Below are positions 4,299-61,156 of a stretch of DNA of 64,000 nt, piece after piece; the stretch's first letter is position 1; every line of letters starts with the position of its first letter. The notes beneath the pieces are model-generated. The model was given only the letters and a program-made list of their open reading frames with translations. It made no database searches and was not told the origin of the DNA. The translations under genes and the position numbers were made by a program. This DNA is from Blasia pusilla (Eukaryota): the NCBI GenBank assembly GCA_050084515.1, contig CM114271.1, forward strand, positions 27,776,001 to 27,840,000. Reading direction: 5' to 3'.

Positions 4299-4312
4299 CT
4301 CCCCCTCAAGCT

Positions 4313-40805: not shown

Positions 40806-42759
40806 TTCATATTCACTTCACTTTCTCTTGTGAACTCATGTATGGTTTTGTTTCGTTTCTGGAATGTCTAGCAGTAGTTGCTCTCATTCATTAGAACAAA
40901 AGAACGTTTCCCACGTGTTTCTCGATCCGAAAGTAAGATAACCAGTCCGAGGACACCTGGTCCTTTCTAATGTCATATACGTAAGAAGGCTCTCACCCAA
41001 TGTTTCTCAACTATCAGATACATCTCGCTGTTCCCCGGGATCCGAAGGCGTTAACCCTTCATACATCCTGCATATGGTCGTTAGCTAAATTATTTCCGGG
41101 TTTATGGATGTAGGCCTAGCCATTGCTTAAGCGAAATCCACGGGTGCAATCCATCCTGTGTTCCAATGGATTTCCCGCAAAGTGGAATCATAGGAGTTGC
41201 TTTCGTCTTAGGTCTTTTCGTTATGGGTGGTTTGTTCATCGCGTGTGGTGTATGCGTAAGTAGTCTTGAGCAATCAAACGTCCTCATAACTCATGTCTTG
41301 GGACCATCCTTGGCTTCTGCCAAGTCTACATACCAGGCTATCTCTCTGCTTCCGATCCCTATCTCGTTGTGATTCCCTGCGTCGAACTGGTTTCGGTGGC
41401 TTGACGATCGGTGGTCCTGCAGGGCTACCCTCTGGTGCCTTCGGAACTTCAGCCATCGCTCCACCCTTTTGAAGCTCACCTCTCAAAATCTTAGCGAGGC
41501 GATGTTTCCTTCCGTTCAGAGCGCCACAGTTAATTGCCCTACACCACCTTATTCCACTAGCAATAGTCAAGATCCTAGATCGCTCGCACTCAACCTTCCA
41601 ATACTTCGCTGGGCGAGCAATATCAACAGACTGGACCACTATTGAAAGAGCCGCCCCGTGTTTCACTCGCAACCACACGCAAACGCTCCTCGTGAACGTG
41701 CAAGTAAAGCCATGGAATCCAACTGAATTGCAAGGACTAGACAGAAGCTTAACCAGGTGACAGTTGTGGTGGCCCATCCTCTGCGGGTAGACATTGAAAG
41801 AACCACCCCACCTGTAGGCGTCCCGGGGTATGCCGGATACACCCTGTAAGCGGGGTATCTGAAGAAGAATCCGTTTCTGTCCAACCGGGTAATGCCCGGA
41901 CTATGTCGTGATCTCTGATCCTATTATGTTAGAAATCGTAGTGTGTTATGAAATTGTGAATTACTACAGCACCAAATATATTGAGTTTTTTTAATTACAT
42001 TGTCACATTGAGTGTGCTCTCACACCTCCAGCCTCGTAATGAACTCTAAGTATTTTTAGAAATAGGTGCCTTATTGAGACGGGGTGAGAAAAGGGCCAAA
42101 CATTAGTTATACGTGATAGTATGGGATTGCAAAATTCCTTCTCCAACGATTGGCATTGTCCTCCGACGACTCCTATCCAGTAGACATTTGTAATTTTAAG
42201 GAATTAAGTTAAGAAACAAGGTTAAGGTTATGTTAAGACACAAGATAACTAAGCTAAAGTAATAATTTTATTTTGTGCATAGCATGGGCATTGTTTTTGG
42301 GATTAAGTGAGAAGTTACTCCAAGAGGAAAATGGCAAGATTTGTCTCTAGTGAAGAGCTTGAATCCTTCCATATGGTAGCAATCCATACTCCAACAGTCG
42401 TTTTCAATCCTTTACAATCCCATGATCAAATTGACTAAGCTAATCTACCTACAATCAAAGGTTAGGAGTTTGCATCCAAAAGTCACATTCCTAATGATTA
42501 TGAGTCTTGTTAATGGTGTCACTACATTCGATGGTGAATAACTCTCTCCCAAACCGCTTATGATTTGACTCGCTCGACTCTACTGGCATTACTTCCAACT
42601 TTGGCTTGTAACCCACAATCTCGAGCATGATGCACAACTTCTAATACCATGAGCCAAGTAGAGCAAAGAGCATCTTGTGTCCATCCCTTAGGGATCGATC
42701 CCATGCACAATTTCTTAGAGTCGCAACCCAGGGCAAGAAACCTCTTTCGATCTCACCCC

Positions 42760-43063
42760 CAGCCACTACATCACCTTTCTTGGTAGGCATGGGGCTCAAC
42801 AATGCAACATTTGTGACCTATCACAACCTCATGTGACATTGCATGTAAACCAGTTCAGGTCCATCGCCTAACTCAAGACATGACGCCATGATGCCTATGA
42901 TACTGACAATACTGTCGTCACTCCTGTGGGAAATCTCATCCCTCCCTCTCGCTCATCCGCCTTGGGCTCCATCAAGCATTGTGCCTGGTCATCCCAAACC
43001 AAGCCAAGTCTAGCCTCCTTATGTGCATAGGAAGCAAGAAAACTCACAAATGTGGGAAAGGCT
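42760..43063 (-). mobile_element. Older DNMT-gypsy relic, left part (host of the younger insertion)
   Basis: Matches ~47330-47640 (methyltransferase motifs IX-X); continues at 53198. Confidence 0.8.
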
Positions 43064-43706
43064 TATCGTGCGCATACACATTGCTACACAACATACATCG
43101 TTGTCAGCGAACACACACTCAAACACGCACGATCCCATGCTAACTCATGGCATCCAAATAACGAGACAAGAAGTACTAAAATATCTCCAATTAAAGTAAG
43201 ATCCAATCTCTCTCTACACCATCTCACACCATAGCTCTCAAAGGTGTGCACTCTCTCTCATGTCAAACCAAACCCACTCTCCTAATAAGAGGCTCGGGTT
43301 ACACTCACAAGGCAAGGGACCATAGCTCCGCTGCCTCATGCCAAGAGGTTCAACAAAGAGAGAATGAGCTCTCAAGCTCTCTCTCCTTGAGGTATACCCC
43401 TCCCCTCTCCCAAGCTCTCTCCATGGTAACTTATTCTCCCAAGTCACCTCCTTGGCTCTTGACCTGATGTAGGAGGTCAAGGGCCAATTACCAAAAATCG
43501 AAAGTTGATCATCTACTCAAAATGGTATTTACCTAAAATAGTAAGTTACTCAATATGGCTCCAAATGAGCCGAAACGAAGGGGAAAACCTGCTCTCTCAG
43601 ATTTCCCGATGCCTTAGCAGGTTATCCTCGACCTACTGAGCCTGTCCTCCACTACTCACGAAGGCGATCTACTAGATCTCACCAATCTATCCTAAAATAC
43701 GTGACA
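43064..43706 (-). repeat. Complete 3' terminal repeat (A 128 bp + B 515 bp) of the DNMT-gypsy element
   Basis: Homologous end to end with the solo repeat 55985-56616 (opposite orientation); t(a/g)tcgtg...cgtgaca termini. Confidence 0.9.
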
Positions 43707-43708
43707 GC

Positions 43709-43836
43709 TGTCGTGCGCATACACATCGCTACACAACATACATCGTTGTCACCGAACACACACACAAACACGCACGATCCCATGCTAACTCATGGCATCC
43801 AAACAACGAGAGAAGAAGTACTAAAATATCTCCAAT
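43709..43836 (-). repeat. Extra copy of repeat A, separated from the full repeat by 'gc'
   Basis: tgtcgtgcgcatacaca...aaaatatctccaat repeats 43064-43191. Confidence 0.9.
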
Positions 43837-44008
43837 CGTCCCCTAGCTTGTGGTTAGGTCCCTCTAACTCCATATAGCCATCTATCCCTACCTACCATGA
43901 CATACATCTCTAGGATGTTAAGAGCAGAAAGGCTGGATGCTTATGTGGCCCATCGTTAGTTGCCTTCCTATTATCCATGTCACAGAAAAATTCGGAATCG
44001 AAACCTAC

Positions 44009-45260
44009 CTAGTATCTCCTCTTTGTACATCTGGGACACATCCATCGTCCCCGAGGAACCCTAGTGAGAGGTGGCATCAGACATGCCATATGCCAACCAC
44101 TCGAACATCCATCACAAACTAGCATCGTGGCCGCACCACGAGCAGAACCACACAACATACAATGCAAGCCTGCAGGAACTACTATTGAGCTCGGATCTAC
44201 TGTATCATCAATGTTAGGAAGGTGACATGGCGCACAATTATGCACATGGTCCTTCCATACCATACCATCGCGTCCCTCCAGCAAGAGAACACCGGATGGC
44301 AAAACGTCACGTACTCTCAGGATAGTGCGTCTTACAGTCACATCCAACGTCGTCGGTGCCGTCTGCTGCAAGTAGACATAATCTCCTTGATGAAACCTCT
44401 TGATAGTTGGTCAATAACCACCGCCCCGAATAGTCGCATACCTCAACGTATCCCGATGCTGCGCAATCGCCAAGTTCTCGAACGCCATGGGCATCACTCT
44501 TCGAAACAACACAGCCCTCTGAGAACATGCTCGCATCCATACATCTGGGTCATCAAGGTCCAGCACCTCACTAGCATCTCGACGAATGGCCGTAGGTAAA
44601 TCTGGATCTCGGCCATAAAGTAGCAAGTACGGTGAAAAAGACGCTAATGATGCCTGCCTGTTGCATCTGTATCCCATCGCCAACCATGGTTACTGGAGGT
44701 CCCAATCTCCTAGATGACCTCTCTGCAAGCCATACTTGCGTAAACCCCTCTTCACCATCTGCACAACTCTCTCCGTTAATCCGTCCGCCCTAGGATGATC
44801 TCGCGAAGTTGTGCGGTGATCGATCAGCACCTGATCACACAAGGCCTGGAACTCACCGCGAAACTCGGTAGCCTGGTCTGTCAACACCTCAGCCGATACG
44901 CCATAATGACTCAACACTCTATCAAGGAAGGCATAAGCTACTCCCTCACTCGCTTTGTCAGGCAATGCAACCAACTCGATCCACTTCGAGAAGTGCTCGA
45001 CCATCACCAACACATAACGACTATGACGCTCCGTCAAAGGCAAAGATCCTGCAAAATCCAAATTCCCTCTATACCCTAAGCCCATGATCGGTAATGGGTG
45101 TAATTGTGGAGTCGGAGCATTGAACGATGCTCCAACCTAATCACACACCATGCACCTGGCAACAAACTGTTGAACGTCAGTCTGCATGCCTCGCCACCAA
45201 TACTAAATCTGGAGCAAACTTTACGTCCACTTCACCCCAAAGTGACCCAACTCCTCGTGG
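44009..45260 (-). pseudogene. Integrase (DDE core) with C-terminal PHD finger
   Basis: DFAGSLPLTERHSRYVLVMVEHFSKW...VLTDQATEF...HPRADGLTERVVQ; PHD CMLC-x10-CDGC-x4-H-x2-CLMPPLTRVPRGRWMCPRC at ~44024-44163. Confidence 0.9.
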
Positions 45261-45361
45261 GTTGGCTGTACTAGTTGTGCTCTCTGCGAAGGATGCAGCA
45301 CTACGCGTACTCTACCATCCTCCCAAACCCTCAAAACATGTGTCCCCTCCCAACGGAACAG

Positions 45362-47010
45362 TCAGGCCCGCTGTAGGATCCGATCCCGCTCTCTAGCACC
45401 CACGGTGCTTGCAACGCTGCCTATACGACGGTACTCCAAAACTACTCCATCATCATGAATATCTCGGCCACGTGTCGTCTCCTCACTGGCCTCGGGATCC
45501 AAGGACTCTCCACTAGACCTTGCCATCGATGTCTCCACACTCTGGCTCTCCAATGCCAACATGTCTAAATAGGCTGACGCGTGCCATCCTGGCACTGACT
45601 CCTCATCACTCTCTCCATGCCATCGAGCTCCAGTCGCATCTCGCTGACTCACGCATGGGTTACGACTCAACCCATCTGCATCCTGGTTGAGCGTCTTAGG
45701 TCTATGTACCACCTGAAAATCATACTTTTGCACCAACAGAGCCCATCTTGCAAGCTTCCATGTAAGCTTGTCAGACTCCATCAACCACTTCAGTGGTTGA
45801 TGATCAGTGATGATAGTAAAGGGGTTTCCGAATAAGTAACACCTGAAATGCGCAACAACCCACACTCCAGCCAAGCACTCACTCTCATACGAGTTGTACT
45901 TCACCTCTGCAGCGTTGTTCGAGGGGCTAGCGTAAGCCACCAGGAACTCTCTACCCTCATCATCATGATGGGTGAGCACCGCTCCAAGCCCCAGCATGCT
46001 CCAATCTGTGTGCACGTGGAAAAGACGCCTCCTGATCGGTCTCCTCAAGATGGACGCCGACGTCAACCTGTCCTTGAGCAATTGAATGCTCGCTCCTGCT
46101 CATCCCCCCAGTGCCACTCATTATCCACCTTGGTCAGCAAGGTCGGCGGCTTCACAATCGAACTGAATCCCTTGACGTACCGCTGATGGAAGTTTGCCAA
46201 TCCCATGAATGCGCGAACACGGCTCACATCTGTAGGGCGTGGAATGCGTGAGATAGCCTCTACCTTCGTCTGCTGAACACCAAGGCCCCTTGGGTATATC
46301 GTATGACCGAAGTACTCAATCTGGTTGTAGAAGAACTTGCACTTGCCTGGATGTAGCTTCAGCCCATGTAATTGCAATTGTCAAAACACCTCCTCTAGAT
46401 ATCGCTCATGCTCCTCAACCGTGGCGCTAAAGACTACAATGTCATCAATATAACACCTAGCAAAATCCAGACCAGCCAAGATCCTATCCATGACCCTCTC
46501 AACTCAGCCGGGGCGTTCTTTAAACCAAATGGTAAGAACCGCCACTAGTACAAAAAATCCTTCCCGTGAGGATCGATGCCCCAAAATGTCATCTGCTACC
46601 TGTCCTCCAATCTGATAAGCAGCTGATGGTATCCGGCTCATAAATCCAATGAATTGAAAACCTTTGTATGACCAATCGCATCAAAGATCTCCTCAAGGGT
46701 GGGCATGGCATACCTATCGGACTTCGTGTGCCGATTGATAGGTCGGTAATCCCCACACATCCGCCTATCCGTCCAGTTGTCATGCACGTCCTTCTTGGCG
46801 GGCATGACAGTGGCAGATGCATACTCCCCATGCGACATCTCCACTAGTCCTGCTCCAACCAAGTCTTGGCTCCTACTCTGAATCAGAGCCCTCTCCATAT
46901 CATTGTACCTGTAGGGTCGTCGGAAGATCGGCGTATCACTCGAAAACTCAATGCGGATCCCCGATCCCTTCAACGTACCCAAATCCTCCATGCTAAACCC
47001 AAAGCATCTC
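45362..47010 (-). pseudogene. Reverse transcriptase and RNase H of the DNMT-gypsy element
   Basis: PIFRRPYRY, RRMCGDYRPIN...SLDL, PFGLKNAP and YIDDIV (46430-46540), HTDWSMLGLGAVL, ITDHQPLKWL, NQDADGLSR. Confidence 0.92.
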
Positions 47011-47419
47011 CTATAACTCCTGAGGAACTGATATATTCGGTGCCGCTCTCCTCCTATCAACTTAGGCTCCCAAGTCTCCATCGTGACTACGATAGCACTC
47101 TCCGGCGCGGATATCGGTGGTTGCAATGGTGCAAGCCCGTCTCGAACAACAACACTCAATTTCTCTCCTGGATCCAACTGCAAACTCTGATCTCCTCCAC
47201 ATGCAGTGCCCGAAACCACGCTCGATGTTGTGGCTATCATCTCCTGGCATACCTGCAAAACATCCCAAGAAGTCCAAGGGTGTCTCTCTCGATCTCCCCT
47301 GGTGTGTCGATCTCCTCGGCTCTTGCCCCCAACCACTGCCTTCACCTTCTCGGAGGCAGAGGGCTCACCAACGCAACCGTTGTGATCTGTCACGATCTCA
47401 TCCGACGCTGCTCAGCCAC

Positions 47420-48362
47420 TCCCAAGCTGAAGATCCATGTCAAGCAGCTCAAGTCCATCGCCTGACCCAAGACATGGCGTCGTGATGCCTCTGAGACTGC
47501 CGTCACTCTTGGGGGGAATCATATCACCCGCTCTCTCTCGTTGGTGTTGGGCTCACCAACCTCTAAACCTGGTCATCCCAAACCAAGCAATTGGCCTCCT
47601 TGTATGCATAGGAAGCGGGAAAACTCACAAACGTGGGAAATATTGCCCGCTTCTTGCCTACCCTGTTGACCACAGTCAACGGTGGTCGATCATCGTGCCT
47701 CATTGTCTGTGACCGAAAATCTGGATCCACAAAGGAATCCACTAACAAATGGGAGGGGCGCTCCACTATCGCATACGCCCTCCGTAACACCGCATGGGGC
47801 ACCAAGTTGGTCCACCATACACGCGGGCGATGGACTCTAGAGCCTACACTCGCCGCAACCAAGAACACTGTTGGGCCGATCCACGCACGCACCTTATGAG
47901 CACTCATCACCACCCGTGACCTAGAGTCTCCTAAGATGGGCACATTCTCCAGAATGTTGGCTGGAGAATGAGACTGGTGCTCCTGCAACTGCCATAAGAC
48001 CCTCAACATCTCCGAAAACAACCTCGACCGAGTATCAGCCAACCCGCTTCCTCGTCCACCACTCGATTGGCCCTGACATGGCCAACCATAAATGACCAAA
48101 TCAATGGTCCCTACCCGCTCTAAGTCCTGCGCCCCCAATAATGAAATATCCCTTGGTAGGGAACTCTGGTATTCCTGTACCGCGGACGCAAACAATAAGT
48201 CGAGAAAACGTAGGCGTAACTGTGCCACATGTCGTAGTGAGATGCGCCTCGCAACATGATCACTCTCCACATACATATACTATTGTACTCGCACTCCTGC
48301 CTGCAAAACATCAACTAACCTGGTGCTAATCCCTCCAAAGAGATCTAACACTCAAATACCCT
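47420..48362 (-). pseudogene. DNMT3-like DNA (cytosine-5)-methyltransferase domain inside the retrotransposon polyprotein
   Basis: Motif I GI*VLDLFGGIST; II YVESD; IV DLVIYGWPCQG; RLFSEMLRVL; VI ILENV; VIII VHRPRVWWTNL; IX-X (after a frameshift) ERERVI*FP...SRRHVLGQAMDL. Confidence 0.9.
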
Positions 48363-48788
48363 CCTCCGGGGTACACCATACAATGGGTGTGGTATCCAAG
48401 GGTGTCATCGTAGCACTCCCTGATACCTCAGGTTCCTCAGACCCGTCATGCTTCGGTGAAAATGCCTCCATCCACGCGGTTTGCACGTGCTCATCTGCCA
48501 ATCGTCGGAGCTCCTCAGTCAAGCCCCACAACAGCACCTCTCCTCCACGAAATGATGCGGCTACCATAACACTCCTCTCCATAGAAATGTTAGGAATGGG
48601 AGTATCCTCTGCATGGACATGTCCCTCAATCAAATCACTAGTTCAAGTGATGGCACTACTAAATGCTGCTAAGGTCACCATCTCTCCTCGCCGTTGCTCG
48701 ATCACTGCACATGTGAATCGAACGGGTAATGAGCTAAGGCGCCCATCACCGACCGCCATCCACAGTGCAGAGGGGCCGACTCTTCCCA

Positions 48789-50830
48789 TTAATCCAGAGA
48801 AAACCCCATCGGGTATAACATTGCTCCACCAACCAAGACGTCGTAGGACTCTGCATCAGTCACTATCGCCTTGGCTCGCACCACGAACTCATCTGGAGGA
48901 TGTCCCGGGCGAATCCTCACCACGACCTCCTGTCCATCACCTCTTCTGCAGTCACCTCTAATGTGATGCAGGAACTCCAACTCCATGCTCACATAGCGTA
49001 GCGGCCAGCCAAAGGCCTCGGCGGGCGTACCCCCCAACGTCATAATATCGGAAGCAAAAAATAAAGGAGCGTGGTACACAATGGTGGCCGCCCCCAACAA
49101 CGTGCTCGAAACATGCCCCTCCTGAGCATCAACAATAAAAGGCTTCGCACTCGCTTCTCCCATCGCCCTTCGTGCTTGCACACCAACAACATCACCAACT
49201 CTCCAGGAACTGTGATCAGGACCCATCGATGAGGTCCTCATCGCCTCAGACAACGTGAAAGACTGAGGAAGCCTAGTCTGTTTCCTGGCTTCCCCTCGTT
49301 GTGGATCCAACTCTGTGGCTGCTCCACGCGTCACAACTACGGCGGCCTCTATCTGGGCAACCCCGTACATCCAACCAGGATCCTCCATATCTCTGGCTAC
49401 TCCATATGATGTCGATGCCACGCATCGGGCATCGGGTAATCTCAATGCCATAGCGGCAATCTGCTCCTGTAGCTGATGTATCTGAGCAACCATCCTAGCC
49501 TCACGCCCGGCATCTCCCTCGACGCGTCTAGGTGTTAGGACTATACCTCCTCCACGGGCAGCTCCACCACCCTCTCGGGAAACTCCAGCTCCTCGTCCCC
49601 CAACGGGACCACCTGGTGCACGATCTCTAGGCCCATCCCGACCGGTTACTCGCTCTAGTGCCCTCTCTGGCCCTCGATCCGGATGTAGCTCAGGATGTAA
49701 ACTGAAACATCTGGCATGTGTGTGACCAAACCTCTGACAATAGTCATATTGATAACCTCCTGGTGCAGCACCATCTCCTCCATGCTGAGGCACACGTCCA
49801 TGACCCTGACGAGTGCAATCGCGCTGATGATGGGCTCTACCACATGACCAACAAGTAGTAGTAGGCGGCTACTGCTGAGCCGCATATAAAGGCGCAGGTC
49901 TCTGTGGCACGGCCTCCCAATATCCTCCTTGAGCTCGTGGTGCCACAGTCGACCTATCTTGGAGTCCACGTTGCTGCATAGGTAGTGTAGAAAATCGTGA
50001 CTGCTCTCGCCCAGAACCCATGGTGGCTACGCTCTCCTCCGCCATGTTGCGCTCAATGTTCTCGGCGGTCCTAAAAACATCTTTGAACGTAGGGGAGGTG
50101 TTCATAAGAAGCATCCCCTCCCGCACCCGTGTCCGCAAGCTCCCATCCAGCATCGCGTACCATGACTGGATAGCATGAGCCTCTGTCACCCCCTGAGTGA
50201 CGTTGATCAACCAGCGCAAGCGAGTGTTACTCACAAAATCTCACACGGGCGCCTATGGAAGTTGTGGATGCTCCGCAACTTCTCCATCTGTATCCCGTGG
50301 TAGCTCGCTCTCAACTCAGCTAAGAACTCAACCACATGGTTGAACCTAGGACGAACCCGACTAGACGGTGCAATTGCTCTAGTGCGAGTGACCTCTCCTA
50401 AAACATCACAAGTGGAAGAGGAAGTAGCCTCTCTTGACTCCTCCTCCTCCTCCTCATCTAGGAACGGCTCCGTCCATGACACATAATGTGGGTCATAGTA
50501 GAGCCTCCACGCCTAGATCTCACGTGCATATCTCTGAGAGAACTCATGGTTATCGTCCATTGGCATCCCCTCTAAATGCTGGAACATACCGTTCCATGCT
50601 GTAAACGGGTTGAACTCTCTAGAGTTCCCGGCCCGTTGGGAGTTGCACCAACTACTAAACTCTGCTATGAAATTGTGCAACTCAATCGTGCCTACTGCAC
50701 ATGAAAACCTACGCGGTCCTCTACCCCGATCGTCCATCTCGTACGCCCAACTGGTAGGACCACTCACAATGTGTGGCGATGTGCTCACAAACTCCTCTAC
50801 ACGCTCCCCCTCGACTGAAGACGACACACA
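48789..50830 (-). pseudogene. Gag (with degenerate zinc knuckle) and C-terminal half of the aspartic protease
   Basis: YQYDYCQRFGHTHARC knuckle; VVVRIRPG...AESYDVLVGGAML protease C-terminus; catalytic D(T/S)G not found. Confidence 0.65.
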
Positions 50831-51924
50831 AAGAGATCAAGGTGGTCTCTCATGTAGAGACCCTCGAAACCTCGCACCACTCTGGGTAAACCCTCCAGAG
50901 CTACTCTTAGGTCCACTACTTCGCCTCTCAAAATCCTAAAAGGACGCCGTGATGGCCCTCATGCCCCTCTCACACGATCACTCTCAACCTCGCGAGTTAT
51001 CCCTCAATCACTCATCCCAAACATGCGGCACTCGATCTACATTCTCCCTCCCCGAGACGTATATCGTGCGGCAACAAGCGGCGTGGTGCGGAAAATCGAC
51101 CAGGCTATTATCTCATCGATAACCTACCCTCAACTCAGGACATCCCATACAGGTCTATGTCCCCGAAACCACATACATAACTAATGCTCTCAGCATCCAC
51201 ACACCCAATATCCCCAAATAAACTACCTAAATCCCAGAATCCCTCACACGTGCAGGGTAAAGGACCAAAATGGGTAACCTGAACACATGTCGATGTCGCT
51301 CCTCAGCAACTGCAAATCTCGACCCCAACTTGGTCATGGAGACAAATCCTCCAATCAGTAAGTCATACTCCTCCTGTACTGATGCTGCTTAAAACTCCTT
51401 GATGGACAGTGCGATTCCAGTGGAACGGTGCGGCGTTGGAGGCGGCACAAGACGACTTCGAACGGCACGGCCCTCGATGGTGGGATGCGGCACTCGGCAG
51501 CATACCCTCCTCAATCAACAATAAACCCACACTCTGCTCCACAATGACGGTACGGCTTCGCGATCAAGACCGCACGGTGCGGCCACGAGCGGCACTACGC
51601 GGCAATCGGCGGCGTGTTGCGGCTACGGGCGTCACGGCACGGTACTCGATCGTCATCGAGCGGCTACCAATCACAACATCGCATCATGAAATCAAAACTC
51701 AAACACCATAATTGGAAGTCATCTACCATCACTGGTTGATGAAGAAACTGCGATGACGGTGGCGGCAGTTTTGTCATCAACCAGTGATGGTGATGGTCAG
51801 AGAATCAACGGTGGTCGTGGAAGACCCTCCACTTCATAATGGCGGAAATGGCAACCAAAGGGTGGACAACGGCCGAATGCAACTCTGACCAACGATGGGA
51901 AACGGCAACGGCCGACAGTGGCCA

Positions 51925-52105
51925 GTGGACGGTTGGACCGTTGATGGTGACGGTTGATTGTTGACGGTGACGACGGATCGTTGACGGTAACGGCGACGGT
52001 TGACCGTTGACGGTGACAGTTGACCGTTGAATGTGGGTGTGATGGTTGACCGTCGATGGTGACCTTTGACCGTTGATGGGTGACGGTGACGATGACGATG
52101 ACGGT
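51925..52105. repeat. Degenerate short tandem array (gttgacc/gttgacggtgac units) in the 5' leader of the DNMT-gypsy element
   Basis: Repeated gttgaccgttgacggtgac-like motifs. Confidence 0.75.
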
Positions 52106-52683
52106 CGCCGCCGGCGTGGCGGCTAGTTTAGGGTTTGAACAATTTAATCCTAAAAATCGCCTAGCAATGGCAATTTTGCAAGATTGACCATAACGTTTAC
52201 TTGCAACTCCAAATTGAGCATCATTTGTTGCACAACATGCATAGCTTCACGATCTACAATGGCAACAAAAAATATTTGGAATTGGATATTCCAGTAAAAA
52301 CTGACAGGGATTGTCGTAAAGCCTAATGTCTCTTTCTCCTACACCAAATTTAGCAGCGCTTCCGCGCAGATTTCTCCCAACCAAAATATAAAACCTATAA
52401 AAATACAAATCAGCAAGCTATATGGTGCTCCCGAGAGCACCGGCATGGTGCAACCCACCCCCATAATCAATCCCTATCAAAAATTGGGCAGCGCTTCCGC
52501 ACGCCACTCTTCCACACGAAAAATCGGCAAATGCAAAGAACAATCAAAGCAACCCTTGCTCCGGTGAGCACTCCCATGAGCCGCTGAATGGGGAACACGG
52601 TCCCCAACCTGCAAAAACAGAGAGTAACCAGCGAGCTCCCCCATGAAGCTATCTCACTCTCTCATTCTCTCATTCTCTCTTTG

Positions 52684-53197
52684 TAAAGTAAGATCCAATC
52701 TCTCTCTACACCATCTCACACCATAGCTCTCAAAGGTGTGCACTCTCTCTCATGTCAAACCAAACCCACTCTCCTAATGAGAGGTTTGGGTTACACTCAC
52801 AAGGCAAGGGACCATGGCTCCGCCGCCTCATGCCAAGAGATTCAACAAAAAGAGAATGAGCTCTCAAGCTCTCTCTCCTTGAGGTATACCCCTCCCTTCT
52901 CCCAAGCTCTCTCCATGGTAACCTATTCTCCCAAGTCACCTCCTTGGCTCTTGACTTGATGTAGGAGGTCAAGAGCCACTTACCAAAAATAGAAAGTTGA
53001 TCATATACTCAAAATCGTATTTATCTAAAATAGTAAGTTATTCAATATGGCTCCAAATGAGCCGAAACGAAGGAGAAACCTGCTCTCTCAGGTTTCCCGG
53101 GGCCTCAACAGGTCATCCTTGACCTTTAGAGCCTGTCCTCCACTACTCACGAAGGCGCTCTACTAGATCTCACTGATCTATCCTAAAAGACGTGATA
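52684..53197 (-). repeat. 5' terminal repeat consisting of B only
   Basis: taaagtaagatccaatc...cgtgata repeats 43192-43706; A absent. Confidence 0.9.
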
Positions 53198-53630
53198 GGC
53201 TGCTCGTGGCATGCCAATCCTATTGACCACAGTCAACGGCGGTCGATCATCATGCCTCACTGCCTATGATAGACGATCAGGATCCATAATGGAATCCACT
53301 ATCAAATGGGAGATCCGCTCCACTCTCGCATAAGCCCTCCGCAACACCTCATGTGGCATCAAGTTGGTCCACCATAGATGCAAGCAATGTGCTCATAATC
53401 CTACACTCGACACATCCAAAAACATTGTTAGGCCAATCCATGTGCGCACTTGATGTGCACTCCTCATCACACGTGACCTCAAATGGCCCAAAATCAACAC
53501 ATTCTCTAGAATGTATGCTGGAGAATGCGACTGATGCTCTTGCAAGTGTCGCAAGATCCTCATCATCTCCCAAAAAAACCTCGATCAAGTATCAGCCTAC
53601 TTGCTACCTTGTCCAACACTCAACTAGCCA
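53198..53630 (-). mobile_element. Older DNMT-gypsy relic, right part (continuation of 42760-43063)
   Basis: Matches ~47645-48070 (methyltransferase TRD, motif VI ENV, downstream of motif IV). Confidence 0.8.
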
Positions 53631-56600
53631 GTCTAGATGAGAACTCTCCTTCATCCACTCTTAGCTTCACACTGTGGTCCAACAGTGTAGAGATTGGCTT
53701 ACAAGTCGTGATATCATATTTTGAAAGCATATAAAGAGCATATTGTCGTTGTAGTAACCACATGCTCTTTCCAACCTTTATAAACTCAATACCAAGGAAG
53801 TACTTGAGCTCTCCCAAGTCCTTCATATCAAATTCTGCTTTTAACTTAAGCTTGACTTTTTGTACCATTTCTTCAGTACTCCCAGTAATCACGAGTAATC
53901 AATATACAACACAATGAGAATCGTATGATTCTGTCCTCTCAAGACATATAACAAAGAGTCATACTCACAAACCCTAAATCCCAACTCTTGTGGAACGTAC
54001 GTAATCTTGTCATACCAAGCTCTAGGAGCTTGTTTGAGCCCATATAGAGCTTTCTTCAACGTACATACGTGAAATGGAAACTTGGGATGCTCGTATCTAG
54101 GTGGTTGAGTCATATATACCTCCTCGTATAGATCTCTATTCAAGAAGGCATTCTTGACGTCCATGTGATGTAATCTCCACTTCTTACTTACTACAACTGC
54201 AACCACTTTTCTCGTAGTCGCCATCTTTGCAACAGGGCTAAATATTTTCTTATAATCGATGACATATTGTTGTGCATAGCCCTTAGCCACCAATCTCGCT
54301 TTGTATCTGTTAATTGTACCATCTTGATTGCGCTTGATTTTGTAAACCCATTTGCAACCAATAGCTTCCTTACCGAAAGGTATATCAACCAGCTCTCATG
54401 TTTGTTGATGTCTTAATGCAGCAAGCTCTTCCTCCATAGCTTCAATCCATTCGACTTTACTTGCAGCTTCTTCAAAACAACTCGGCTCTTGTTCTTGAAG
54501 GGTAGTCATCATATATGCATCATGTGCCGCAAGGAAACCTTTATTTATGAATCTATGAACTGGATGTGTAACTCTACTTGATCTACAAAGTTGTTGTTCA
54601 GAGGTAGATGCCTCTGACACCTGACTCAAGCTCTGACTAGTGTCAACAGACTGAATACGCACTCTTCCCATTCATGGACTCACAGATTTAACTAATGAAT
54701 CTAGGACCTCTCCTAATCCTGCACTAGTACTTGAGGAAGTTGAAGACAATGTCTATTGGTTTACAGTCATATTCTCCCCCTCAACAGACGAGTTTAGAAG
54801 GGGAATAGGCTCAGATGGAGCATACCATGACTTTAGTTCATCAAAGACAATATCGCGACTAATAATAAGTTGCCTAGAGGATGGAATGTAGCACTTATAT
54901 CCCTTAGTTCCATCAGCATAGCCAATGAAGATACACTTTTAGAATTAGGGTCTAATTTTTGATGTCTCTCAGAAGGAACATGAGCATAACGAATACAGCC
55001 AAATACTTTCAAGAAGGAGAAATCAGGTTTCCTTCCTATGAAGACTTCGAATGGGGTTTTATCATGAACTCCTATTGTTGGAGTTTGGTTGATTAAGAAG
55101 ACTGCACATGCTACAACCTCTACCCAATATACCTTAGGCATGTTCTTCTCATTCAACATAGCTCGTGTCGCTTCAGCAATATGTCGATTCTTCCTCTCAG
55201 CCACTCCATTTTCTTGTCGAGTGTAACGGCAAGTCACTTGACGTTGGATGTGATTCTAACGTAAATAGTCATCAAACTTTGTTGAAAGATACTCTCCTCC
55301 TCCGTCACAACGCAATTTCAGAATGTGTTCTATAGTGTGCTTCTCTACTAGAACTCTGGATATTTAGAACACTGAGAATACCTCTGACTTGGCTTTAAGA
55401 AAGTATACCCATATATACCTAGAGAAGTAATGAACAAATGAAACAACGTACTTGCAACCACTAAGGCAATATTGTGATATTGTCCACACATCACTATGGA
55501 TCAACTCTAATATCCTAGATGCTCTTCTACCTTGCTTTGGAAAAGGAAATCTAGCTTGTTTTCCAAATTGGCAAACACGATAAACCTCTAACGTAGTAGG
55601 ACTCCCTAATTTAGGAAGTCCTATTACTATATTAGATGATGAAAGATTCTATAATCTTTGAAGATTCATATGTCCAATTCTTTTATGCCACACATTTAGA
55701 TCTGTGACTTGTTGGCATGTTTGACCATACATTATTGTTTGAATCTTATTTGAACATTCTGCCAGATCTAGTTCCTTTGGCTATCGTAGTGTGGTCAACC
55801 ATTATTTCAATGAAACAACCATCTGCGTTAAACTTCAGTTGATAACCCTGTTCTACTATCTGTCCTACAGAGATCAGATTTATTGCAATGGTAGGAACAT
55901 AGAGAACGTTTCCAAGAGCACAAAGACCATCTGATGCTATTGGAACTTTATCGGTATGCGTGATATGATGTTGAGTGTCATCTCTGTCACGACTGTTAGG
56001 ATAGATCGGTGGGATCTAGCAAAGCGTCTGCACGAGTAGTGGAAGACATACCCAGGAGGTCGAGGATGACCTGTTGAGGCTCCGAAAAACCTGAGAGAGC
56101 AAGTTTCCCCTTCGTTTCAACTCATTTGGAGCCATATAGAGAAACTTACTATTTCGAGTAAGTTTCGATATTGGGGATAGTTGACTTTCCACTTTCAGAA
56201 GTGGCCCTTGACCCGCTACAGCAGGTTAAGAGCCAAGGAGATGACCTGCGAGCATAGGTTACTATTGAGAGGGCTTGGGAGAGGGAAGGAAATATACCTC
56301 AAGGAGAGAGAGAGCTTGAGAGCTCATTCTCTCTTTGTTGAACCTCTTGGCATAAGTTGGCGGAGCTATGGTCCCTTGCCTTGTGAGTGTAACCCAAGCC
56401 TCTCATTAGGAGAGTGGGTTTGGTTTGACATGAGAGAGAGTGCATACCTTTGAGAGCTATAGTGTAGAGAGAGATTCGATTTTACTTTATTGGAGATATT
56501 TTGGTACTTCTCACCTCTGTGTATGGATGCCATGAGTTAGCATGGGATCGTGTGTGTTTGTGTGTGTATTCGATGACAGCGATGTATGTTGTGTAGCGAT

Positions 56601-56858
56601 GTGCATGCACACGATATCTCCTGTGAGCACAATTGCAGGATCTTTCACCGGCTCCAAACTACTAAACTATTTAACTTGTGAGGTCATGTGATTTGATGCA
56701 CCAGAGTCAATATACCAATCTGCTGTCGAGTTTTTCTTGACCATTGTTGCCATATGATGAGTCATAACCAAGAGATGCTCTGGTTGTGAATGTTGTTGTT
56801 CTTGGTACTGCTATTCGTATTGTTGCTCCACATAGTTTTGTTGCTATAAGGCTCTAGT
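53631..56858 (-). mobile_element. Ty1/copia internal fragment (protease-integrase-RT), same family as 3986-14318
   Basis: QENGVAERKNRHI (integrase); LVAKGYAQ, MDVKNAFLN, LKKALYGLKQAPRAW, FDMKDLGELKYFLGIE (RT); 55775-55984 and 56617-56853 closely match 12381-12825. Confidence 0.9.
55985..56616 (+). repeat. Solo terminal repeat (B+A, 632 bp) of the DNMT-gypsy family inserted in copia
   Basis: Reverse complement of 43064-43706; tgtcacg...cacgata termini; TSD TCTC (55981-55984 / 56617-56620); the empty site gtcatctcct is visible in the other copia copy near 12583. Confidence 0.9.
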
Positions 56859-59800
56859 TGTCGCGCCCCTACTCTCCTTGAACGCCAATCTTTAGTGTTG
56901 CGGAAGCGTACGTTCAGTAGGCCACAATCTCATCGCCGATCTGCACCCAAACATGCGCTCTCGTTAGTCGGTCTCGGCCAACCAGCGTTCCAACCCACTG
57001 AGTTCTCACTCGACGTCTCATCAAGCTCAACCTTCCTTAATTCCTAGTTTCCAAAACATGGCAAGTCCTTCAAGACTTGGAACAAACTTCCTGGTTAGTC
57101 CAGGGATCTGAAACGGCACTTTCGCGCCTAGCGATCCCAACTATTCAACGGACCTCGTGTGAGCTCCAAACCGAGACCCAAGTTATTGAGTCGCGGGGTG
57201 AAATCCAAGAGGGATGTCTAAAATCGCCTCGATAGACTTGGTGCAGGTTTTCCAACCCAACTCCCAAACTCGCGTTCCGTTCCATGCCCTTGAGCCGCCC
57301 AAAGTGGGGTTCGGGTTCCAAGCACTCTCGCAGACCTTCCTCTTTACTAGTACTTCAGGGGTTCTCCAATAACCCGCCCCCTCTTGAAACGGAGGGTCGG
57401 GCCCTTCATTGTGGCCCTCAACCCGACTCCACTTACACTCGTTTCCGGGTTGTTTCTCAACCGCTGCATATGGGTTTGCAGATATCTTTAGTGTGTTTGA
57501 ACCGGCTTTCCATAAGTCTTCTAACACACCCTTGTTCAATCAAAACGCATCTTGGCGCTAAAAGTTATGGCCACAAATACAGTCAAAAACTCTCAAACGC
57601 TAGTGGCATTCCAAATCCGGATTCTTCCTTTGGCACCCCACTTCCTAGACTCAACTCCTTTCAAGTCTTGATCCGCGTTTCGTCCAGGTTTCCCAGTTAC
57701 GACCATCACATCTGAAACGCAAAGCCTTGCTTGCGTCTCGTCTCTTGTCTCTTCTTCGAGACCACTCCAACGCGCAAACCATCTTAGCGTGAGCCCGCCA
57801 ATGTTTCGATGTTCCGCTTTGGCACTTGTTTGGTCATGAGGGTCGCGACACTCATCCCTCTTTAGAGGTTGATGCCCTGATCAACGCAAACCTTTGTTAT
57901 GTCAAGTCTCCTGGGCAGCCTACCCCTTGACATTGAATTGCGTTCTGGTGGCTAACCCGCAATTCCTCTTAGTCTATAGTTGTTGCTTTGCCCCACTTAG
58001 AATTATTAACCTCTCCTCTTTGATAAGCTTGGACTAGTTGAAGGAACTAACCTATCAAATAAGCTAACTAAGTGTGCAACCTTAGACTCTTCTAACTCAT
58101 TCCTATAAACATCACACTTGTTTACCTAGTCTACAAATCGTACTACTTTTGGGTCGCTCTCGTATTCGATTTAGGCGCGTCACTAAGTTTACTTATGTAG
58201 CCACAAGTAAGATCACCCCAAGCCCCAAGATAGATTCATCTGCCCCGCCGACGCTAGGGCGAGCCCGAGCGTAATCCAACCCAAGGTCCTGTTCTAGGTG
58301 CTTATCCACATACGATCTCTCACCTCAAATACTCCTTTTCTGTCCTCTTGACTTACATCCTAAGCCTATGATGAACAACTCATAGCCATGCACTACCACA
58401 TACAAATTGCAATCAACTCTGGAATCGAATCTCCAAAATCCATACACTCCTTTATTGCAACACTAGCATATTCTGGTTACAACGGCCTTTGGCCCAAGAT
58501 TCCAATGGTTACAAGTCATGACTCTAGCTTCTCCTCATACTAATGTATGTGCTTCGCTTGCGTTTGCTTGAAGTCTCGCAACAACTCTTGCGCATTTTCC
58601 AAATCCGCCTCCGCAATCCAAGTTGCCTCCTTCACATGGTAGCCCTTCCATTTTACCAAGTATTCATACTTGTTGGCCCGACGCCTCGAACGTAAGATGG
58701 TCTCCATCTCAAACTCCGGCTCTTCATTTATGATCACCGAGTGCGGTCTCACCACCTGTCTCCGCTCGAAACGTCCATTATCTTGAAGATATTTCTTCAA
58801 CAATGACACATGAAAGGTCGGGTGAATCTTGAACTTGTCCGGCAGCCTCAACGTATACACATCCTCAAACGGGTTTGCCACAATCACATACGGTCCAGCA
58901 TACTTGGCAGACAGCTTCGCAGACACCTCTTTCGGAAGAGTGAGGTTCTTCACACTCAACCACACTTGCTCTCCAACTTGGAATCGGTGTTGGCGCTGAC
59001 TCTTGTTAGCATGCTTAACGTACCTCATTTGAGCCTTTGCAAGACTTCGCCTTGCTTGCTCTTCCCGTTCTCGCATCTCCACCAACAAACCTTCTGCCGT
59101 CGCTTGTCGTGTTCGTGCCAATGTAGTACCCTTCGAAAGGGCTAGGTCAAGAGGCCCTTCTGGCTCTCGTCCATTTGCCAGGAGAAACGGAGATTCTCTA
59201 GTTGCAGAATGCTTGGTCGAGTTGTAGCAGTACTCCGCCATGCTCAGCCACTTGACCCAATCTCGTTGATCAAGATCGACATAATTCCTTAATCTTGATT
59301 CACGATTGAGTTTACCTTTTCAGTCTGTCCATCCGTCTGTGGGTGGAAAGTTGTACTGAAACTCAGCTTGGCCTTAAACCTTCTGAACAAGTGCTTCCAG
59401 AAAGCACTGGTAAACTTTGGATCCCGATCTGAAACAATGCTCCTCCGAAAACCGTGAGCACGCCACCAGCTATCGAGAAACAGTTGCGACGTCGTATAAG
59501 TCGTTGCGGAATCCACCGTCGGCACGAATCTCGCCAACTTGCTAAACCGATCAACAATCACAAGTATAGCATTGTATCCCTCAGATTCCGGAAGCCTCGT
59601 GATGAAATCCATACACACACTTTGCAAGGGTCCTTCTGGGATCGGCAAGGGATGCAGCAAGCCTTGTTTCTTATCAGAAGAAACTCTTTTCGCTTGGCAG
59701 GTCACACAGGTCTTCACATATTGAGCAACATCCTCTTTCATGTTGGGCCAAAAGAACCGCTTTGACAGAACAGCCAGCGTAGATTTCTCTCCTTTATGTC

Positions 59801-60801: not shown

Positions 60802-61156
60802 AAAACTGACCTCCACTTGCTTTCACTTTTATCTTTGGGACGTGAGGTTACAAATGATACTTACGATTGTAATCATAAGGGACTAGAGCAAGGATGTCAC
60901 AAGCCATGCACTAAACTTTTCTACTATTTGACGCACGTTCCAAGTTAAGGAGAAGATAGCAACTTGATCTACAGTTTCTTGGTTCACTTCAAACATATTT
61001 CTATCACTAGAATCACAAGATTCTAGTTTCAACTCTTCTATATTTCCCTATTTGGACTTGCTCCAAGCTATTTGAAGAATGGATCATCTATACCTTTCCC
61101 CAGTCACTACTCATAAAGGATTTTTCAAACAGCTAGTTGAGTATACATACAATATC

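Follow-up and report, generated by a model that had tools for sequence, protein, structure and literature searches.

A PHD finger behind the integrase in DNMT-bearing Ty3/gypsy elements of the green lineage

Introduction

What is a PHD finger doing at the end of a retrotransposon polyprotein, and how does it relate to a DNA methyltransferase (DNMT) domain in the same element? The question is raised by a stretch of 64,000 nucleotides of Blasia pusilla DNA (contig CM114271.1, positions 27,776,001 to 27,840,000; hereafter the window), in which a sequence-only reading had noticed a PHD finger fused to an integrase and had proposed that it steers integration while the DNMT marks the new copy. Here, we ask whether the finger is genuine, how widely and under what constraint it is kept, whether it travels with the DNMT, and what it is likely to bind.

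Results

The integrase frame ends in an intact PHD finger

The minus-strand interval 44410..44009 is an open frame of 133 residues by translation, ending in the string HCMLCGSARGAATMLVCDGCSSGWHMACLMPPLTRVPRGRWMCPRCTKRRY, which the sequence-only reading had quoted, and a stop codon at 44011-44009, 5 residues past the last Cys. The zinc-ligand spacing read from the translation, C-x2-C-x11-C-x2-C-x4-H-x2-C-x14-C-x2-C, is canonical C4HC3, and residues 84-128 match the Pfam PHD profile (PF00628) over its whole length (1-47 of 47; E 2.6e-11; 43.8 bits, cut-off 24). A PDB search with the frame returned 101 distinct sequences at E <= 0.01, PHD fingers nearly throughout; the top single-domain matches are the PHD1 fingers of Lid, KDM5B, and KDM5A (E 7.7e-15 to 3.9e-14), followed by CHD4, PHF12, KAT6A, PHF21A (BHC80), and AIRE. 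The AlphaFold2 model of residues 81-130 (block-mean pLDDT 93-97) predicts a cross-brace PHD fold that superimposes on solved PHD fingers at 0.6-1.4 Å over 46-52 residues (Foldseek). Its structural neighbours are the fingers of DPF3b, BAZ2A/B, UHRF1, ATXR5, BHC80, CHD5, MOZ, and KDM5B, with complexes of unmodified H3 named in several of the entry titles.

The finger is fused directly to the C-terminal β-barrel of the integrase. In particular, AlphaFold2 places barrel strands at residues 11-14, 30-36, 41-45, 51-55, and 59-61, and the best Foldseek matches, albeit with poor rmsd, are the Tudor-PHD proteins PHF1, MTF2, and UHRF1. The barrel motif H-x3-C-x2-C-H-L-P (H55, C59, C62, H63), a Cys/His motif just upstream of the PHD and additional to it, is conserved. 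With canonical ligand spacing, a full-length Pfam match, and barrel and finger in one frame, the C-terminal PHD finger is genuine, intact, and placed after the integrase barrel, as the sequence-only reading had it. That reading had also placed the finger where chromoviruses carry a chromodomain, and the window itself bears this out: a chromovirus at 59319-58540 has an integrase SH3_Tf2-1 domain followed by a Chromo domain (PF00385). A Pfam search of the C-terminal frame with the PHD found PHD families only and no chromodomain, so that by defining domain the element is not a chromovirus.

The window copy is a broken Ty3/gypsy element inserted into a relative

The frame belongs to a Ty3/gypsy element of 10,134 bp on the minus strand (43064-53197) with a 4-bp target duplication and the domain order gag-PR-DNMT-RT-RNaseH-INT-PHD. 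Its features, with those of its flanks, are as follows.

42756-43059, minus strand: downstream half of the DNMT region of the older copy hit by the insertion; 70% identical to 47326-47640
43060..43063, no strand: target-site duplication GGCT, with the second copy at 53198-53201; flanks read
43064..43707, minus strand: 3' terminal repeat, segments x (43064-43191) and y (43192-43707); self-BLAST and sequence reading
43710..43836, minus strand: extra internal copy of segment x; 96% identical to 43066-43191
44161-44027, minus strand: PHD finger from Cys1 to Cys7 (frame residues 84-128); Pfam, PDB, AlphaFold2, Foldseek
44162..44410, minus strand: integrase C-terminal β-barrel (SH3/Tudor-like); AlphaFold2, Foldseek, conserved columns
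44411..45136, minus strand: integrase catalytic core and linker, in the PHD's own frame; open reading frame list, PF00665, tblastn
45362..46099, minus strand: RNase H domain of the reverse transcriptase; PF17917, E 4.9e-31
46063..47411, minus strand: reverse transcriptase region, in three frames; tblastn HSPs to L011 ORF2, open reading frame list
47563..48279, minus strand: C5 DNMT fragment between protease and RT; PF00145, E 6e-9, motif IV GWPCQ, motif VI ENV
48723..50836, minus strand: gag, zinc-knuckle, and protease region, placed solely on position and weak similarity; open reading frame list, with L011 ORF1 matched weakly by tblastn in two HSPs
52684..53197, minus strand: 5' terminal repeat, consisting of segment y alone; matches 43192-43720 at 93% identity
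53212..53629, minus strand: upstream half of the older copy's DNMT region; 79% identical to 47655-48072

The Pfam matches to PF00145, RT_RNaseH, and rve lie on one strand in Ty3/gypsy order with a DDE integrase, confirming the earlier claim that a DNMT shares the element with the PHD; the gag, zinc-knuckle, and protease region gave no Pfam match. The integrase core (PF00665) is matched at 45136-44690 (E 7.9e-11), and from core to PHD the frame is broken only by in-frame stops, at 44689-44687 and 44413-44411. Compared by tblastn with the intact relative L011, the integrase region is 62% identical to ORF2 over 690 columns with 6 stops, the reverse transcriptase HSPs lie in frames -3 (3 stops) and -2 (2 stops), and the DNMT fragment aligns with ORF1 residues 820-1200 with 3 stops. 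Altogether, the RT-INT part of the window copy is interrupted by 11 in-frame stops and has shifted frame at least twice against L011, so that no polyprotein can be made from it: the copy is a fossil and does nothing.

The direct repeats are split, in the order y (53197-52684) ... x (43836-43710)-GC-y (43707-43192)-x (43191-43064). The internal copy of x meets the 3' repeat through the dinucleotide GC and resembles a repeat-to-repeat junction, the 3' repeat end reads ...CGTGACA / TATCGTG, and the related locus L075 has the same y...x-y-x layout. The TG..CA termini and the 4-bp target duplication show that the insertion was the work of an integrase. Joined with one GGCT, the flanks are colinear with, and equal in length to, the element's own DNMT region at 47615-47690; the one insertion site examined is within an older element from this family, which fits targeting to heterochromatin and fits plain survival in junk DNA equally well.

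RNA-seq reads of the source organism match the INT-PHD stretch at 95-99% likeness in all three runs, with the first mate mainly on the plus strand. At that likeness they are attributable to transcripts of sibling copies and are silent on the window locus itself.

The PHD finger is shared by a wide family

Of 210 matching proteins fetched, 183 span the integrase C-terminus and the PHD, and 169 of these 183 keep C4HC3. PF00628 is present in 31 of 37 word-search matches, 548 of 599 metagenome stretches were confirmed as belonging to the PHD family, and 43 representatives reached E <= 1e-30 in an exhaustive search whose top 150 matches mostly cover residues 1-130. The full architecture is seen in the intact relatives P0030/P0192 and L011, and intact full-length relatives include transcriptome ORFs; no terminal repeats were found in L011, probably because its 9.3-kb contig lacks the element ends. 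Genomic copies are mostly decayed, with C4HC3 kept in 24 and the frame free of stops in 10 of 51 full-length matches. The claim that the finger ends the polyprotein is right for the window's clade: in 7 related loci that are intact, the stop follows 4-15 residues past the final Cys, and 10 of the 12 relatives scanned have the end of the PHD within 13 residues of their C-terminus.

The named homologues come from Marchantia, Calypogeia, Sphagnum, and Scenedesmus, that is, by name from liverworts, a moss, and a chlorophyte, Scenedesmus sp. being the name attached to the one cluster of 20 that carries an organism name. Klebsormidium is absent from the named matches, including 4 proteins from a word search with P0030 residues 1-361 (DNMT). 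Neither Selaginella nor Physcomitrium occurs among the named homologues, and PHD does not appear in the text of the REXdb paper, so that the earlier suggestion of PHD-bearing Selgy elements in Selaginella found no support. The REXdb paper describes the Selgy and Phygy clades as short and species-specific, and Phygy prefers NCGN targets, in contrast to the GGCT duplication of the window element.

The PHD finger is under purifying selection

Between lineages, the dN/dS of the PHD is 0.05-0.4, as expected under purifying selection; the estimates are rough, because only 45 codons enter them. Specifically, comparison of the window with four loci, at dS of about 1.1, gives 0.22-0.26, and L064, L065, and L080 give 0.05-0.18 among themselves. 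Within a young subfamily it is ~1, as expected for decay after insertion. The integrase barrel is under tighter constraint (0.07-0.11) than the PHD (0.22-0.26). The finger is conserved over 151 distinct intact sequences, to about 40% identity, and, zinc ligands aside, its conservation is strongest in the strand MLxCD, the P-x-G-x-W loop, and the Asp that follows Cys3.

These data bear on the simplest alternative, that the decayed element holds no more than a relic without function or a motif arisen by chance: the window copy is dead and most related genomic copies are decayed, but the strength of the Pfam match, the conservation across the 151 sequences, a between-lineage dN/dS well under 1, and the existence of intact full-length relatives already contradict this reading at the level of the family, and we consider it highly improbable.

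The PHD finger and a DNMT3-like domain are inherited together

Of 31 loci long enough to tell, 24 have a DNMT upstream of RT. Iterative search matched 45 proteins, and each of the 31 that exceed 1500 aa contains a DNMT-homologous region. Among algal-type relatives, PF00145 is present in 17 of 21 and PF00628 in 20 of 21, and every long algal relative has a DNMT3-like domain. By these sequence comparisons, the PHD and the DNMT3-like domain are inherited together across a wide green-lineage family. In L011, in which the DNMT is intact, DNMT3A/B/C account for 29 of 40 PDB rows (best E 1e-7), above the bacterial M.HaeIII/HhaI; the decayed DNMT of the window gives weak matches, with M.HaeIII (1.4e-4) slightly above DNMT3A (3e-3).

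The DNMT occupies two different positions across the family. In the algal clade the order is DNMT-INT-PHD, and the DNMT adjoins INT-PHD; in the window's clade about 1,400 residues separate DNMT from PHD. The DNMTs of the two positions are 40% identical over 328 residues (E 8e-64), whereas the best solved DNMT, DNMT3A, matches the family DNMT only at E 1e-7, which argues that one DNMT lineage stayed with the PHD. Its place in the polyprotein seems to have shifted between algae and liverworts. Intact L011 has an ORF1 of gag-PR-DNMT and, beyond an in-frame TAG, an ORF2 of RT-RH-INT-PHD; with the DNMT at the end of ORF1 and the PHD at the end of ORF2, the two domains lie on different products or far apart. 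A tblastn search with the surroundings of the L011 inter-ORF stop recovered L011 itself only, the region being too variable.

The PHD region is kept with no detectable DNMT in 7 of 31 testable loci. We rejected an older DNMT-free lineage as the source of these loci, since they are scattered among DNMT-bearing loci in an RT-INT FastTree tree of query-anchored rows; this scatter within DNMT-bearing clades, in a tree read without support values, suggests secondary loss.

The finger resembles readers of the unmodified H3 tail

PHD fingers that read H3K4me3 (BPTF/ING type) have an aromatic cage, one member of which is a Trp at the second position ahead of the zinc-binding His. At this position, the 151 distinct family PHDs have Gly (139), Ala (11), or Thr (1) and no aromatic residue; the window has Gly. 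PHD fingers that bind the unmodified H3 tail (BHC80, AIRE PHD1, KDM5 PHD1, BAZ2A, CHD4) have an xLxCD strand and a P-x-G-x-W loop, and in solved complexes the MLxCD strand, the P-x-G-x-W loop, and the Asp after Cys3 hold the H3 N-terminus. The window PHD has both unmodified-tail features, as MLVCD and PRGRWMC, and its assignment to the CLxPPLxxxPxGxWxC type was correct; its nearest solved relatives are H3-tail readers. The groove residues are nearly invariant: Asp follows Cys3 in 139 of the 151 distinct intact PHDs, and Trp lies two residues before Cys7 in 149. To judge from the nearest solved PHDs and the missing aromatic cage, the likely ligand is the unmodified H3 tail, with no preference for H3K4me3.

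In H3-tail readers, unmethylated K4 or R2 is contacted by acidic residues that precede Cys1 or lie within the Cys2-Cys3 loop. The window PHD lacks them, with GLHC before and at Cys1 and the loop GSARGAAT. At least 2 D/E residues are present in this loop in 1 of 28 close relatives versus 89 of 123 distant ones, and 24 of the 28 close relatives have R/K immediately before Cys1. The window's clade is therefore without the acidic residues that H3K4me0 readers tend to have, and the ligand may differ in this clade.

Discussion

We favour, by a little more than an even chance, a reading in which the PHD is a selected accessory domain of the integrase in elements of the Gypsy-DNMT3 kind, predicted to tether integration through the H3 tail. 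The finger would bind the H3 N-terminal tail where lysine 4 is not trimethylated, the H3-bound finger would tether the integrase-cDNA complex to nucleosomes, and tethering would bias insertion away from active promoters, in the manner of the chromodomain in chromoviruses.

A further step, compatible with integration tethering and in our judgement unlikely, would couple the two domains: the PHD would recruit the element's own DNMT3-like enzyme to H3K4-unmethylated chromatin or license it there, much as ADD does, leaving the new copy or its surroundings methylated. The co-inherited, cage-less H3-tail PHD and a single captured DNMT3-like enzyme would then form a self-contained reader-writer system in an ancient gypsy lineage that reaches from chlorophytes to streptophytes. 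In it, the PHD would pick H3K4-unmethylated chromatin for integration, and methylation of the new copy would fall to the DNMT, which as part of gag-PR-DNMT in the bryophyte clade would be produced at Gag-like levels. The DNMT frequencies given above for loci, long proteins, and algal-type relatives, the single DNMT lineage kept with the PHD in two positions, the adjacency of the two domains in the algal order, and the scatter of DNMT-less loci all speak for such coupling, and retrotransposon DNMTs are reportedly capable of de novo CG methylation, a finding attributed to de Mendoza et al. in 2018. Against it stand the distance between DNMT and PHD in the window's clade, the TAG-split ORFs of L011, which would place the domains in different proteins after protease processing, the loci with a PHD region and no detectable DNMT, and Gypsy-7a_cRei, described with a PHD and, as far as its figure legend goes, no DNMT. 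Of the pair proposed in the sequence-only reading, then, co-inheritance across a wide family holds; the coupling itself is weakened by these points and by the missing acidic H3K4me0-reader residues in the window's clade. If true, a reader-writer system would be an independent reinvention of the animal ADD-DNMT3 logic, and the loop charge switch of the bryophyte-clade PHD would mark a changed chromatin target.

Improbable, in our estimate, is a PHD that binds DNA, a host factor, or a second integrase subunit instead of a histone tail, or that is a zinc module of structural use, with a part in intasome assembly, nuclear import, or stability. The neutral-to-basic loop and the R/K before Cys1 in the window's clade, unlike H3K4me0 readers, are compatible with this, the upstream barrel motif (H55, C59, C62, H63) could indicate a composite zinc-bound module, and PHF12, whose PHD2 is among the PDB neighbours, has that finger within the SIN3B complex. 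However, the best-conserved non-ligand residues are those that hold the H3 N-terminus in known complexes, and the close structural neighbours are all histone-tail binders.

If the PHD steers integration, as tethering through the H3 tail predicts, it would be a second, zinc-finger-based solution to the problem that chromoviruses solve by chromodomains; the PHD family and chromoviruses share genomes, so that a direct comparison is possible. A putative histone reader co-inherited with a DNMT3-like writer from green algae to liverworts also offers a natural system for the question of transposon epigenetic self-management. For annotation, PHD-only or DNMT-only bryophyte gene models can be element fragments rather than host chromatin genes; the Marchantia models P0010 and P0013 look like such fragments, P0013 consisting of DNMT fragments and a PHD.

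Comparison with known systems

Chromoviruses (MAGGY and the Tf1 group, as Gao et al. are said to have described in 2008) reportedly have a histone reader fused past the SH3-like barrel of the integrase, where it acts as an integration tether. The window family likewise has a putative histone-reader domain after the integrase C-terminal barrel; the chromovirus reader is a chromodomain directed at H3K9me, whereas that of the window family is a zinc-bound PHD for which the H3 N-terminus is the expected target. In animals, reading of H3K4me0 by the ADD domain of DNMT3A/3L licenses de novo methylation. ADD-DNMT3 and the window family alike associate a Cys-rich, cage-less H3-tail reader, a predicted one in the window family, with a methyltransferase of DNMT3 type or, in the window family, DNMT3-like, but ADD is fused to the methyltransferase, whereas the window family has a canonical single PHD on the integrase and a DNMT that is distant or in a separate ORF. 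Cellular DNMT3s of the green lineage are reported to lack ADD (PMC12344493).

Gypsy elements with a DNMT3 (Klebsormidium) and with a PHD (Chlamydomonas) are already published. KnitGypsy-Dnmt3 of Klebsormidium nitens (de Mendoza et al. 2018, PMC5890265), of a kind named 'streptophyte Gypsy-DNMT3' in a preprint (10.64898/2026.05.21.726589), is, like the window element, a streptophyte LTR gypsy element with a DDE integrase and a DNMT in the coding region, which is DNMT3-related in Klebsormidium and probably so in the window family. Its repeats, 'the same as that of a DIRS retrotransposon' in the legend of Fig. 4c, match by description the y...x-y-x split direct repeats of the window element and L075; it comes from Klebsormidium, whereas the named streptophyte relatives of the window element are bryophytes. 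The word PHD does not occur in the main text of PMC5890265 or in one text supplement, which also lacks the word 'Gypsy'; Fig. 4c or the supplementary figures may show the domain.

Gypsy-7a_cRei of Chlamydomonas reinhardtii is described (Craig et al. 2022, PMC9940879) as having a Gag-Pol with a PHD finger and LTR 'subparts', and by that description it shares with the window family a gypsy LTR element, a PHD, and LTRs in subparts. Its legend lists GAG, PROT, RT, RH, PHD, and INT and no DNMT; if the listing follows the element, the PHD may precede the integrase, unlike that of the window element. The same text gives its intergenic insertions as 2.6 times the expected frequency, and the authors suggest targeted insertion. 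Finally, EpiLTRs, as set out in the preprint (10.64898/2026.05.21.726589), are gypsy-like LTR elements with a chromodomain, a DAM adenine methyltransferase, and a DNMT4-related DNMT. Like the window family, where the reader is a putative one, they are gypsy-like and stack a chromatin reader with DNA methyltransferase domains; on that description the two differ in their parts, a PHD and a DNMT3-like DNMT in the window family versus a chromodomain, DAM, and a DNMT4-related DNMT in EpiLTRs.

Identity and fold of the PHD finger

The element, a Ty3/gypsy retrotransposon copy, is bounded at 43064-53197 (10,134 bp, from self-comparison and direct reading), and all of its coding parts are on the minus strand.

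Coding features of the element and of a neighboring chromovirus (window coordinates)
about 50836-48723, minus: gag, zinc knuckle and protease (PR), by position and weak similarity only
48279-47563, minus: C5-DNMT fragment (PF00145, E 6e-9; GWPCQ and ENV motifs)
47411-46063, minus: reverse transcriptase (RT)
46099-45362, minus: RNase H (RH; PF17917, E 4.9e-31)
45136-44690, minus: integrase (INT) core (PF00665, E 7.9e-11)
44410..44009, minus: 133-residue frame with C-terminal barrel and PHD, downstream of the integrase core
58540-60860, minus: classical chromovirus; RNase H/integrase zinc domain and integrase core, followed by SH3_Tf2-1 and Chromo (PF00385, E 3.8e-14)
59319-58540, minus: SH3_Tf2-1 and Chromo part of the chromovirus

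Translation of the open 133-residue frame gives the C-terminal string HCMLCGSARGAATMLVCDGCSSGWHMACLMPPLTRVPRGRWMCPRCTKRRY followed by a stop. The C4HC3 is canonical in spacing, with eight zinc ligands, and PF00628 matches residues 84-128 as a full-length profile (E 2.6e-11; 43.8 bits versus a cut-off of 24); together these results bear out the coordinates and motif assigned to the PHD finger in the sequence-only reading. A phmmer search matched 101 distinct PDB sequences at E <= 0.01: the top single-domain matches are PHD1 of Lid, KDM5B, and KDM5A (E 7.7e-15 to 3.9e-14), followed by CHD4, PHF12, KAT6A/B, PHF21A (BHC80), DPF3, BAZ2A/B, AIRE, and UHRF1. An AlphaFold2 model, built from a family alignment of 70 sequences, has a mean pLDDT of 87.6, with block means of 93-97 at residues 81-130, i.e. 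the PHD finger, which Foldseek superimposes on the PDB-matched fingers at 0.6-1.4 Å. The first Foldseek matches for the whole model are the Tudor-PHD proteins PHF1, MTF2, and UHRF1, with poor rmsd, because the model likewise comprises a beta-barrel followed by a PHD finger.

The integrase barrel just upstream of the PHD finger contains an H-x3-C-x2-C-H-L-P motif (44224-44248, residues 55-63 of the frame), in which P61, C62, H63, and L64 each reach at least 90% conservation across the 70 sequences. The motif stands in place of the usual gypsy-integrase HPVFHVS and may form an extra zinc site.

Family breadth and selection

Aligned with an intact relative, metagenome locus L011, the RT-RH-INT-PHD part of the element is spread over three frames and interrupted by 11 in-frame stops, and its DNMT part is broken as well: the window copy is a dead fossil. 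Most genomic copies have decayed (10 of 51 full-length matches are stop-free, and 24 of 51 keep the C4HC3).

Of 37 relatives found by a word-indexed search for longer proteins, 31 have PF00628; the named hosts are Marchantia polymorpha, Calypogeia fissa, and Sphagnum fallax, and identities reach 80%, which makes a bryophyte origin of the window probable. An exhaustive search gave 43 proteins at E <= 1e-30 and 8,074 at the looser E <= 1e-3, the latter including many ordinary PHD proteins; most of its best 150 matches span query residues 1-130, the integrase barrel and PHD finger together. Both parts are covered in 183 of the 210 matching proteins that were retrieved, and 169 of those 183 keep the C4HC3. 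Metagenome contigs gave 599 pattern matches, 548 of which were confirmed; 80 loci were retained.

Rough dN/dS figures for the PHD finger, resting on 45 codons, are 0.22-0.26 for the window versus L001, L002, L020, and L075 (dS about 1.1), 0.05-0.18 among L064, L065, and L080, and about 1 inside one young subfamily; the barrel next to the PHD finger is more constrained (0.07-0.11). The PHD finger is a family trait under purifying selection between lineages and no local accident. Two Marchantia polymorpha gene models annotated as 'PHD-type domain' host proteins (P0010 and P0013) resemble fragments of the element family, and P0013 joins DNMT fragments with a terminal PHD.

Predicted ligand of the PHD finger

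In solved PHD complexes, the Asp after Cys3, the Trp before Cys7, and the cage Trp have H3-binding roles. Among 151 distinct intact family PHDs, 139 have the Asp after Cys3 and 149 have the Trp two residues before Cys7, while the H3K4me3 cage-Trp position is Gly in 139, Ala in 11, Thr in 1, and aromatic in none. These groove residues, together with the nearest sequence and fold neighbors, point to a predicted cage-less reader of the H3 N-terminus. The Cys2-Cys3 loop is acidic (at least 2 D/E), like that of KDM5 PHD1, in 89 of 123 distant-clade PHDs but in only 1 of 28 in the window's clade, where 24 of 28 have R/K before Cys1; this difference in charge leaves the exact ligand uncertain for the window's clade.

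Judging from its position and from the chromovirus in the window as an analog, the PHD finger most likely serves as an integration tether. In particular, it would hold the integrase-cDNA complex on nucleosomal H3 tails, and this tether would bias the choice of integration target. The chromovirus provides a ready internal comparison for integrase-fused readers.

Association of PHD and DNMT

The family has two domain orders. The window's clade has gag-PR-DNMT-RT-RH-INT-PHD (proteins P0030 and P0192, and L011); a distant clade, which includes a 'pol' of the chlorophyte Scenedesmus sp. PABB004, has RT-RH-DNMT-INT-PHD, and its PHD is usually followed by >100 further residues. Of 28 long distant-clade representatives scanned, all have INT and PHD, and 7 have PF00145 at E <= 1e-5. 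An iterative search with one distant-clade DNMT region found that region in 45 proteins, including all 31 proteins >1500 aa, P0192 and P0030, and one Marchantia gene model; 21 further algal-type relatives have PF00145 in 17 and PF00628 in 20. The 100-500 post-PHD residues of algal-type proteins (P0035, P0083, P0085, P0113, and other distant relatives) gave no Pfam match at E <= 1e-5. One algal-type protein, P0175, has a G-patch between DNMT and integrase.

DNMT lies upstream of RT in 24 of 31 loci (the window and others with RT and at least 1,800 bp upstream; L066 and L067 are seemingly the same sequence) and was not detected in 7; none of 43 loci with RT has DNMT between RT and PHD. In an RT-INT tree (support values not inspected), DNMT-less loci are interspersed with DNMT-bearing loci, a pattern suggestive of secondary loss. 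L011 has an intact DNMT, whose top PDB matches are DNMT3A/B/C (29 of 40 rows, best E 1e-7) and which is 40% identical to the DNMT of algal-clade P0035 over 328 residues (E 8e-64). From this likeness at two positions and from the co-occurrence, a single DNMT lineage seems to have been kept with the PHD while shifting place in the polyprotein.

Such co-inheritance across the family supports the proposal of the sequence-only reading that PHD and DNMT may act as a reader-writer pair, but that coupling is weakened by the loci in which DNMT was not detected and by the ORF structure. In L011, DNMT ends ORF1 (976-5085) and PHD ends ORF2 (5086-8229), separated by an in-frame TAG (5083-5085). This ORF boundary, which precedes the RT domain by about 106-125 residues, is seen again in L026 (7266-7268) and in five protein clusters that start there (P0014, P0017, P0018, P0019, and P0024); P0030 and P0192 run straight through, without a stop between DNMT and RT. 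The split of same-frame gag-PR-DNMT and RT-RH-INT-PHD ORFs by one stop in intact relatives suggests stop-codon readthrough, with DNMT made at Gag-like levels.

RNA-seq reads of the source organism fit the element at 95-99% likeness and cover the INT-PHD bins, with the first mate mostly on the plus strand; for most stranded libraries this orientation corresponds to sense transcripts of the minus strand. These reads demonstrate transcription of sibling copies and are uninformative on the window locus.

Terminal repeats and surrounding transposons

The terminal repeats, 93% identical to each other, are not plain LTRs. With segments x (43064-43191) and y (43192-43707) named from the 3′ repeat, the layout in element orientation is y ... 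x-GC-y-x (43064-43836 and 52684-53197); the same split direct repeats occur in L075 (1922-2221 and 10563-11132). The internal x-GC-y joint resembles a junction between the 3′ and 5′ ends of the element. The termini are of TG..CA type, with one G mutated to A; together with the DDE integrase and the 4-bp target duplication, they stand in contrast to the unusual repeats. A plus-strand polypyrimidine run (polypurine in element orientation) at 52650-52683, directly inside the 5′ repeat, occupies the site where a primer-binding site would be expected.

Flanking features (window coordinates)
43060-43063 and 53198-53201: 4-bp target duplication GGCT (direct reading)
53629-53212 and 43059-42756: halves of an older copy, 70-79% identity to the element
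55984-56616, plus (opposite orientation): third y+x repeat unit, 83% identical to 43064-43707, no coding part attached

The element inserted into the DNMT region of this older copy, a more diverged member of the same family: joined with one GGCT, the flanks are colinear with, and equal in length to, the element's own 47615-47690. The older copy adjoins a copia RT (53620-54395), and the third repeat unit is either a solo repeat or the terminus of a truncated copy. The region consists of nested transposons.

Comparison with known systems

PHD and DNMT have each already been described in retrotransposons. The text of de Mendoza et al. 2018 (PMC5890265) remarks on a DIRS-like repeat structure in KnitGypsy-Dnmt3 of Klebsormidium, which the y ... 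x-GC-y-x repeats of the window element and L075 match; that text, figures aside, never mentions PHD. Gypsy-7a_cRei carries a PHD finger, and targeted insertion was suggested for this element (Craig et al. 2022, PMC9940879). Among Chlamydomonas TEs, PHD is commonly found as an accessory domain (Craig et al. 2021, PMC8557442); it is encoded by many retrotransposons (de Mendoza et al. 2019, PMC6673714) and is, with Chromo, the chromatin domain most often fused to TE domains (Grau-Bove et al., 10.1101/2021.11.30.470311). A 2026 preprint (10.64898/2026.05.21.726589) describes EpiLTRs, which combine Chromo, DAM, and DNMT, and mentions 'streptophytes (Gypsy-DNMT3)'; the REXdb paper (PMC6317226) describes Selgy and Phygy as short, species-specific clades, and its text does not mention PHD. 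In the literature text searched (figures, supplements, and subscription papers may differ), we found no account of co-inheritance of PHD and DNMT3 domains in one green-lineage gypsy family. The PHD finger of the element is real, well placed, and selected, in a copy that is dead; the analysis adds that PHD and DNMT are broadly and constantly associated, that DNMT occupies two positions with what seems to be one shared lineage, and that the PHD loop switches charge between clades.
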